Virus record (IMG/VR): IMGVR_UViG_2744054854_000008
Location: 1 to 11,839 of that record
Reading direction: 5' to 3' (one strand)
DNA length: 11,839 nt
From: a virus
Lineage: Duplodnaviria > Heunggongvirae > Uroviricota > Caudoviricetes
Shown here: positions 4,543 through 5,920 of the stretch, in pieces
Numbering within the stretch: the first letter of the stretch is position 1
How the letters are laid out: the number at the start of each line of letters is the position of its first letter
Notes under the pieces: model-generated
Database searches by the model: none
What the model saw: the letters and a program-made list of their open reading frames with translations, nothing else
What the model was told of the DNA's origin: nothing
Program-made: the position numbers and the translations under genes

Positions 4543-5910
4543 TCAGCTGATACTGATACCTGCTGTGGATTTTTTCATCACCACAACCAGCAGATCGCTG
4601 ATACTGGTTGTTGGTGTCCAGTTATTCGCTCCTGATGAAGATACGGTGAATGTCAGTGTCAGCGTCCCCTGTCCGGCAGGCATATCTATAACTGAGGAAA
4701 ATACGCCCTGAGCATCCGTCGTGGACTGATTAAAAATCTCCTGACCATTGCGGGTCACTCTTAACCGGCAGGTTGAATACCAGTATGACTGTTGGTTATT
4801 ACTGTTGAAATTCTCATGCTTACCACCGCGGAATAACACTGGCGGTATCATGACCTGCCGGTCAAATTTCTGATCATCACTGATTCTTACCGTGATGGTG
4901 CCACTGGCATAACTGTTCGTGCGGGGGAAAGACTTGCTGACCGTTTTGACAATATCGCCTTCAATCTGATTGGCTGACAGTTTCCCCTTAATCTGACAGT
5001 TCTCATTAATCGTGACGTTGTTGAGCGTCCCGGAGTTCGCATTCACACTGCCACTGATATCCGCATTTTTAGCAGTCAGCTTTCCGTCCGGTGTCAGGGA
5101 AAATGCCGGTGGATTTCCACCACTGGTAATGGTGGGGGCCGTCAGGCGTTTCAGGAACACGTCGTTCATGAATATCTGGTTGCCCTGCGCCACAAACATC
5201 GGCGTTTCATTCCCGTTTGCCGGGTCAATAAACGCGATACGATTGGCGGCAACCAGAAACTGACTCAGTTTGCCTTCCTCTGTATCCTCCATGCTGAGGC
5301 CAATACCCGCGACATAATGTTTGCCGTCTTTGGTCTGCTCAATTTTGACAGCCCACATGGCATTCCATTTATCGTTGGCATCCTTCCACTCTTTCGAAAA
5401 CTCATCCAGTCTGCTGGCGTTATCCTCCGTCAGGTCGACTTTTTCCAGCAACTCCTTGCCGAGATGAGATTCGGTTATCTTGCCTTTGAAAAAATCCAGG
5501 TAACCTTCCGCATCATCGCTCGCCCGACCGACAGCCTCCACGAATGCCGATTTGCCAACGGTGTTCACACTACGAACGTAAAAATAATAATCATGGCCCG
5601 GCCTGATATTGATACTGGCAGCTATCCAGTACAGCGCCGTGCCAAGATAGCGGGCTGTGGTTTCAACCTGCCTGATATCAGCAATCCGTTTTTCCGAGAA
5701 CCAGAACTCAAACTGTACCGTCGGATCATAAACCGCAAGATGCGGCGTGGCGGTTATCTGAAAATAGCCCGGCGTCAGCTCAATCCGCGACGGCGCTGCC
5801 GGTGCGGCAATCCGGAACGATACCGATGCCGGATCGCCCTGCTGTCCCCACGCATTTACCGCCCGGACTGTCAGCCTGTAGTTCCCCAGTCGGGGAGCAT
5901 TTTTTTCTGG
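4543..5910 (-). pseudogene. J: 3' fragment of tail tip / host-specificity gene J (C-terminal ~455 codons, no native start)
   Basis: Minus-strand frame is open from the in-frame stop at 5911-5913 to the stop at 4543-4545. I translated 5569-5910 by hand: ...[114 protein letters not shown]..., continuous with the 341-aa ORF in the track and matching my recollection of the lambda J C-terminal region. The first in-frame start is a GTG at 5566-5568 (the track's M), so the ORF-track start is arbitrary. Confidence 0.8.
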
Positions 5911-5920
5911 TTATGCCCTC

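Follow-up and report, generated by a model that had tools for sequence, protein, structure and literature searches.

Phage lambda binds LamB, and a construct covering residues 713–1132 of its tail tip protein gpJ (NP_040600; PDB 8iyk and 8xcj) served to solve the gpJ-LamB complex; the domain names FNIII-2, alpha-helical shaft, central straight fibre and receptor-binding domain (RBD), which we use hereafter, belong to the published gpJ nomenclature (PMC11101478). The engineered chimera A8 of lambda gpJ uses OmpC to deliver DNA into cells deleted for lamB (Brodel et al. 2024, PMC11338833). A truncated J has been described in Escherichia coli REL606, where ECB_00512 is taken to be an N-terminally truncated J pseudogene in a DLP12-like defective prophage, an equation made by product and position only; the RefSeq record has new locus tags. 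Laboratory lambda populations recombined approximately 1.3 kb of ECB_00512 into J, and their fitness doubled (Borin et al., bioRxiv 10.1101/2020.11.02.365361). In crosses between lambda and the stf gene of Rac, recombinants were obtained at a frequency of about 2e-6 over 703 bp that are 88% identical and share no perfect tract longer than 49 bp (De Paepe et al., PMC3945230). The Rac prophage of K-12 (trkG-ynaK-ydaY-ynaA-lomR-stfR-tfaR) has a decayed late region that ends in lom-stf-tfa.

The J fragment described here occupies positions 4543–5889 on the minus strand of the window, by which we mean the whole stretch of 11,839 nucleotides that was analysed. It is very probably the silent remnant of a recent deletion in a Rac-like lambdoid prophage, for which only a passive activity as a recombination donor is plausible. 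As a gene, it is an ordinary pseudogene and is annotated as such in RefSeq. New relative to the earlier description are the exact composite breakpoint, the assignment of the receptor end to the A8/OmpC type, and the near-intact sister prophage by which the deletion is defined.

The window (positions 14462–26300 of the host locus record, L001) was placed by megablast in the chromosome of E. coli 2018-10-1CC, where a decayed prophage is inserted between ybhC and ybhB/bioA in the region of the lambda attachment site. The gene order on the J strand is trkG, a ynaK fragment, a P22-type capsid-family gene, the J fragment, lom, stf, and tfa. The order J-lom-stf-tfa is kept, with ORFs matching Ail_Lom, phage_tail_N/Collar, and Caudo_TAP directly after the fragment on the same strand. 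The locus shares this downstream order with lambda, and its J resembles lambda gpJ in domain order and length, whereas the RBD (the last ~148 residues) is only ~20% identical. The trkG-ynaK moron block in the late region, which is one mark of a Rac-type prophage, is present and near-identical to that of K-12 Rac over ~390 aligned columns as far as the middle of ynaK, diverging from window position ~7087. The other mark, integration at ttcA, is absent; K-12 Rac resides at ttcA, whereas this element is at the lambda attachment site. Both elements have a decayed late region ending in lom-stf-tfa, but ynaA of K-12 (342 aa), at the equivalent position, is a fragment of the tape measure gene and not of J. 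An equation of the J fragment with ynaA/tmpR, which is suggested by similar length (342 versus 341 aa) and by the location after trkG-ynaK, was rejected because ynaA has no similarity to J (best E = 1.3).

ECB_00512 is the nearest likeness, being a 5′-truncated J of lambda type in a decayed prophage, with the same annotation wording and with tail-fibre genes after it. In REL606, ~949 codons (2847 nt) are retained downstream of, and fused to, a small-terminase gene, whereas the fragment analysed here retains 448 codons behind a capsid-gene terminator. Moreover, of the two copies, it is the REL606 one for which recombination with lambda is on record.

Translation of the minus strand from 5913 to 4543 gives a TAA at 5913–5911, 455 sense codons, and a stop at 4545–4543. 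The earlier note had described a start-less frame opening right after the stop at 5911–5913 and running about 455 codons to its natural stop, and both elements are reproduced. It had also proposed that everything 5′ of about residue 680 of a lambda-like J is gone, in good agreement with the first retained codon, 685. The breakpoint, which was to be fixed by alignment to lambda J, had been placed at 5910. The alignment bears out the 3′ part of J but not this edge: comparison with full-length J genes places the beginning of J homology at 5889, and the true boundary at 5889/5890 is followed upstream by 22 nt of filler. The first seven codons of the open frame (5910–5890) are therefore not J and come from a scrap of the tail-tube gene. 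The pseudogene proper (4543–5889, minus strand) consists of the 3′-terminal 1,347 nt, namely 448 codons plus the stop, and corresponds to residues 685–1132 of a 1132-aa J with 448 of 448 residues identical (tblastn). Against lambda J, it aligns to residues 684–1131 in PDB 8iyk (E = 1e-231), and the breakpoint corresponds to lambda residue 685. The similarity to J is far above chance in DNA and protein alike (E = 0). RefSeq (PGAP) annotates a pseudogene at the same limits (5889–4543) as 'phage tail tip protein; incomplete; missing N-terminus'.

In Pfam searches, the fragment matched Ig_J (the last 30 aa only), Ig_J_second (8e-40), Phage_Tail_Tip (2.3e-34), and Ig_GpJ_C (1.4e-36). It thus contains the last 30 aa of FNIII-1, followed by FNIII-2, the helical shaft, the central straight fibre, and the RBD, so that the C-terminal central-fibre module of gpJ (FNIII/Ig-like domains, shaft and prism, and the Ig domain of the RBD) is present. 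The hub domains FNIII-A_GpJ and Phage-tail_3, which the full-length J genes of the sister prophage and of phages possess together with a start codon, were not found in the fragment by Pfam. The N-terminal baseplate-hub domains are needed to build the tail tip. Because they are absent, the sequence is a gene fragment and not a functional member of the gpJ family. The claim that the whole receptor-recognition end is retained holds, since Ig_GpJ_C is complete and the gpJ 713–1132 construct is wholly contained in the fragment. A lack of similarity to the J C-terminus, which would have spoken against this assignment, was not observed.

A far more complete version of the same prophage is present at the same lambda attachment site in E. 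coli 2017.15.02CC, which was sampled in the same Vietnamese province as 2018-10-1CC. Its late region encodes terminase, portal, scaffold, P22-type capsid, head-tail genes, tail tube, ydaY, and tape measure, followed by M, L, K, I, a J of 1132 codons, lom, stf, and tfa. We use this sister prophage (L004) as a stand-in for the ancestor and not as the ancestor proper. The blocks of the window are collinear with it in blastn alignments: window 1–5889 matches 644–6532 at 99.4% identity, window 5887–5914 matches 15214–15241 within the tail-tube CDS (15176–16138) at 28 of 28 positions, and window 5912–6894, comprising the 3′ part of the capsid gene and its terminator, matches 17893–18875 at 100%. The J fragment shows no nucleotide difference from the full-length sister J (WP_180438324.1; 0 of 1347).

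Relative to the sister prophage, 8,681 and 2,651 bp are missing around the short middle block, or 11,332 bp altogether. The missing DNA lay between the capsid-gene terminator and J codon 685; it carried the head-completion genes, the genes for the tail tube and the tape measure, ydaY, M, L, K, and I, together with J codons 1–684. Read along the J strand, the capsid-gene terminator is followed by 22 nt of the 3′ part of the tail-tube gene (5890–5911, minus strand) and then by J codon 685 at 5889. In a base-level view, both seams show microhomology of 3 nt, CAG and TAT. The open frame takes its first seven codons from this filler, as the TAA does its final base. This TAA (5911–5913, minus strand) was created by the joint, because the sister prophage reads CATATG at this position, which is the start of the gene after the capsid gene. 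A simple two-ended deletion is ruled out by the 22-nt tail-tube island. The structure of the joints suggests either serial microhomology-mediated deletions or one template-switching event, and the choice between the two would be a matter of inference. Because no substitution separates the fragment from the sister J, the deletion was probably recent.

The next joint upstream is of similar style, with a 34-nt island of the minor-head gene at 6888–6921 that overlaps its neighbors by 4 nt and 2 nt. Both big joints of the late region thus keep short collinear islands of the deleted DNA (28 nt and 34 nt) with microhomology of 2–4 nt. At the border between J and the filler (5881–5898, plus strand), the strand antisense to J carries an inverted repeat, GTTCCCC-AGTC-GGGGAGC, with a run of seven T's after it. 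It was scored as terminator-like, and it may be due to chance or tied to the formation of the joint. The differences from the sister prophage over window 1–5889 are unevenly distributed, as 26 of the 37 sit in the first 500 bases, within tfa, which points to a recombination patch in that tail-fibre assembly gene. The J and capsid fragments are both identical to the sister.

The receptor-binding end of the fragment (4543–4984, minus strand; J residues ~986–1132) is a non-lambda allele of the A8/OmpC type. Residues 685–984 are ~96% identical to lambda J, whereas residues 985–1132 are only ~20% identical (29 of 148), and blastn found no DNA match between this end and lambda. The best match in the PDB is 'A8 gpJ 713' (9wca/9wcb), which is identical over residues 181–455 of the open frame. 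The DNA of GpJ A8, as read by OCR from the supplement of PMC11338833, aligned to the window with 552 matches, 12 mismatches, and 21 gap columns, and its departures from the window are scanning errors and a few silent changes. The link between the A8 of the PDB entries and that of Brodel et al. is made by the name and by this supplementary DNA sequence. Given the identity with A8 and the ~20% identity to lambda J, the RBD is of the OmpC type and not of the LamB type, and a lambda-type receptor domain is ruled out on the same two grounds. OmpC specificity of the natural copy is thereby predicted from its identity with A8. [quoted passage not shown] A receptor-prediction preprint of 2026 gives no receptor assignment for this J type. 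The allele is very common. Copies with at least 99% identity occur in 1215 complete E. coli records, and Stx1a-converting phages, phage 2H10, Lys8385Vzw, and others match its last 160 residues at 100%.

The signals around the fragment point to a silent sequence. The first in-frame ATG, GTG, or TTG is the GTG at 5566–5568 (minus strand), which opens a 341-aa ORF (4543–5568) in the ORF list. This agrees with the earlier observation that there is no ATG near the 5′ end and only this internal GTG. An ATG at 5900–5898 is out of frame with J. The GTG encodes Val792 of J, in the middle of FNIII-2. Its best anti-Shine-Dalgarno duplex in the interval from −20 to −4 is +1.2 kcal/mol, compared with −5.6 to −7.1 kcal/mol for the ATG of lom (4476), the ATG of tfa (585), and a GTG at 3818 beside the stf start, which PGAP places at 3812. 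No Shine-Dalgarno sequence was found at GTG 5568 or at any early in-frame start, and those at later in-frame starts are weak. Judged from these flanking bases, GTG 5568 is not a credible initiation site.

Transcription of the fragment also appears to be obstructed. The frame-opening stop had been said to lie just beyond the terminator of the upstream gene, and a hairpin with a T-run (GGGGC-TTCG-GCCCC followed by ATTTTT; 5931–5944, minus strand) was indeed detected by the terminator scan right after the stop of the upstream capsid-family ORF (5957–5955). This native stem-loop is identical in the sister prophage, downstream of the capsid gene, and is now located directly upstream of the J fragment. 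A scan found no promoter-like site on the minus strand between the hairpin and the fragment; with no Shine-Dalgarno sequence either, a dedicated promoter or ribosome-binding site was rejected. No gene for the antiterminator Q is among the annotated features of the element. The match between the window and the sister prophage ends inside the sister lysis genes, short of the sister Q gene, and the DNA upstream of the late genes is therefore missing. A translatable J gene has a start, a ribosome-binding site, and a Q-dependent late operon, and the fragment has none of them. Left without hub domains, start codon, and ribosome-binding site, and with a terminator upstream and Q absent from the element, the fragment is predicted to be silent. 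Read-through from trkG or from the upstream fusion ORF, or leaderless or non-canonical initiation, may nevertheless occur. An antisense ORF of 213 aa that spans the junction (5317–5958, plus strand) has no Pfam match and is probably spurious. Another hairpin with a T-run is located at 4506–4525 (minus strand), between the J stop and the lom start, according to the terminator scan; it is strong and would insulate lom from transcription on the J strand.

The passive role would require homology to an incoming phage on both sides of the receptor-binding end. The central J segment (4985–5889, minus strand; J residues 685–985) aligns to nt 2053–2957 of lambda J over 905 ungapped bp at 93.9% identity, with longest perfect tracts of 83, 83, and 65 bp (blastn). 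On the other side, the 3′ end of lom and the 5′ part of stf (2904–4004, minus strand) align to lambda 19459–20559 (L005 4459–5559) over 1101 ungapped bp at 86.8% identity, with a longest perfect tract of 54 bp (blastn). The two possible arms are collinear with lambda and enclose the divergent RBD and most of lom. The region thus offers collinear homology on both sides, as long and as similar as in pairs known to undergo Red/RecA recombination, which is one requirement of a recombination donor. An incoming lambdoid phage could pick up the OmpC-type end through the 94% J arm and the 87% lom/stf arm. Such a rescue of the receptor end, which the earlier note had put forward, is plausible by analogy, and the idea has precedent and is not new. 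It is made credible by the homology arms to lambda, by the published precedents, and by the functional A8 chimera with the same C-terminus.

Three other explanations of the fragment have to be weighed. The truncation may be an artefact of assembly or a frameshift, in which case the strain would really have a full-length J. The junction was seen in only two database records, which have identical length and probably represent the same isolate or assembly. Both records are, however, of 'complete genome' level, and residues 1–684 of the sister J and of lambda J had no match in any of the six frames of the window (tblastn; best E = 0.29). Because no remnant of this part remains in any frame, the 5′ part of J was deleted and not frameshifted, and a frameshifted complete J is ruled out. 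J coding in another frame 5′ of 5910, which the earlier note had named as the observation that would overturn the deletion, was looked for and not detected; the DNA there is the P22-type capsid gene. Templated islands of 22 and 34 nt with microhomology at the joints also argue against an artefact, as do the further deletions in the element, which are collinear with the sister prophage and typical of the decay of real prophages. We regard this reading as scarcely credible. Translation from GTG 5568 or a later start would give a C-terminal J protein in soluble form with a function of its own, which might be that of a decoy binding OmpC or of a factor in superinfection exclusion. The 341-aa ORF is open, and recombinant gpJ 713–1132 fragments fold and bind the receptor in vitro (PMC11101478). 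Nevertheless, the poor pairing at GTG 5568, its position within a domain, and the weak signals at later starts do not favor translation, nor do the upstream terminator and the lack of a promoter-like site and of an annotated Q gene. No signal peptide was evident in the translation by eye. A translated product is, in our opinion, highly improbable.

The block from the J fragment to tfa might also have been kept by selection, as a host-range cassette that repeatedly donates its RBD to lambdoid phages or as a benefit to the host. The fragment and the lom, stf, and tfa genes after it have stayed intact next to an 11-kb loss upstream, usable homology arms are present, and recombination with a prophage J relic can double the fitness of lambda (Borin et al., bioRxiv 10.1101/2020.11.02.365361). 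However, the absence of any substitution relative to the sister J implies that too little time has passed for selection to act or to become detectable, and the junction is confined to one isolate. Furthermore, the same RBD occurs in full-length J genes of more than 1200 E. coli records, so that this copy is not unique. Only one place in the host genome record matches the region, with no second lambda-like J, and there is therefore no resident phage that could serve as a recombination partner. For these reasons, we consider retention by selection unlikely. It is very unlikely that the fragment is not inert in one of two ways, either as a low-level OmpC-binding trimer that hinders OmpC-dependent phages or as a selected cassette that is routinely captured by lambdoid phages.

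As a deletion remnant that is predicted to be silent, the fragment illustrates a course of prophage decay in which structural genes are lost through large, island-bearing deletions and the distal host-range genes stay perfect to the base. It represents a clean natural OmpC-type J end flanked by lambda-like homology, and a possible substrate for prophage-to-phage recombination as shown in REL606 and K-12. If it is true that such remnants regularly donate receptor specificity, this would matter for predicting host-range shifts in phage therapy. Being one recent copy, in one strain, of a very common allele, this fragment does not strengthen the case for donation and has little import beyond bookkeeping.

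Other marks of decay were observed in and near the window. Two ORFs are in-frame deletion fusions. The first, of 461 aa (5955–7340, minus strand), begins at the ATG of ynaK, has a ParB_N domain, and continues through the junction into the P22-type capsid gene, of which it retains the C-terminal ~313 codons. In the PGAP annotation it appears as two features, a ynaK pseudogene and a 365-aa 'capsid family protein' that starts upstream of the capsid homology. The second, of 413 aa (10598–11839, plus strand), combines a dATP/dGTP pyrophosphohydrolase domain with the catalytic C-terminal domain of a tyrosine integrase, and PGAP annotates both halves as pseudogene fragments. The sister prophage lacks a counterpart of window 9369–11208, where an ead/Ea22-like gene and a hypothetical gene lie together with early-region fragments, and has an IS1 there instead. 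Each of the two prophages has therefore lost different parts of a common ancestor. In both strains, a sensor diguanylate cyclase gene is situated just beyond the window, between tfa and ybhB. Also outside the window, the anion permease gene ybhI (L001 8211–10366) is fragmented by two copies of IS1, whereas it is intact in the sister strain.
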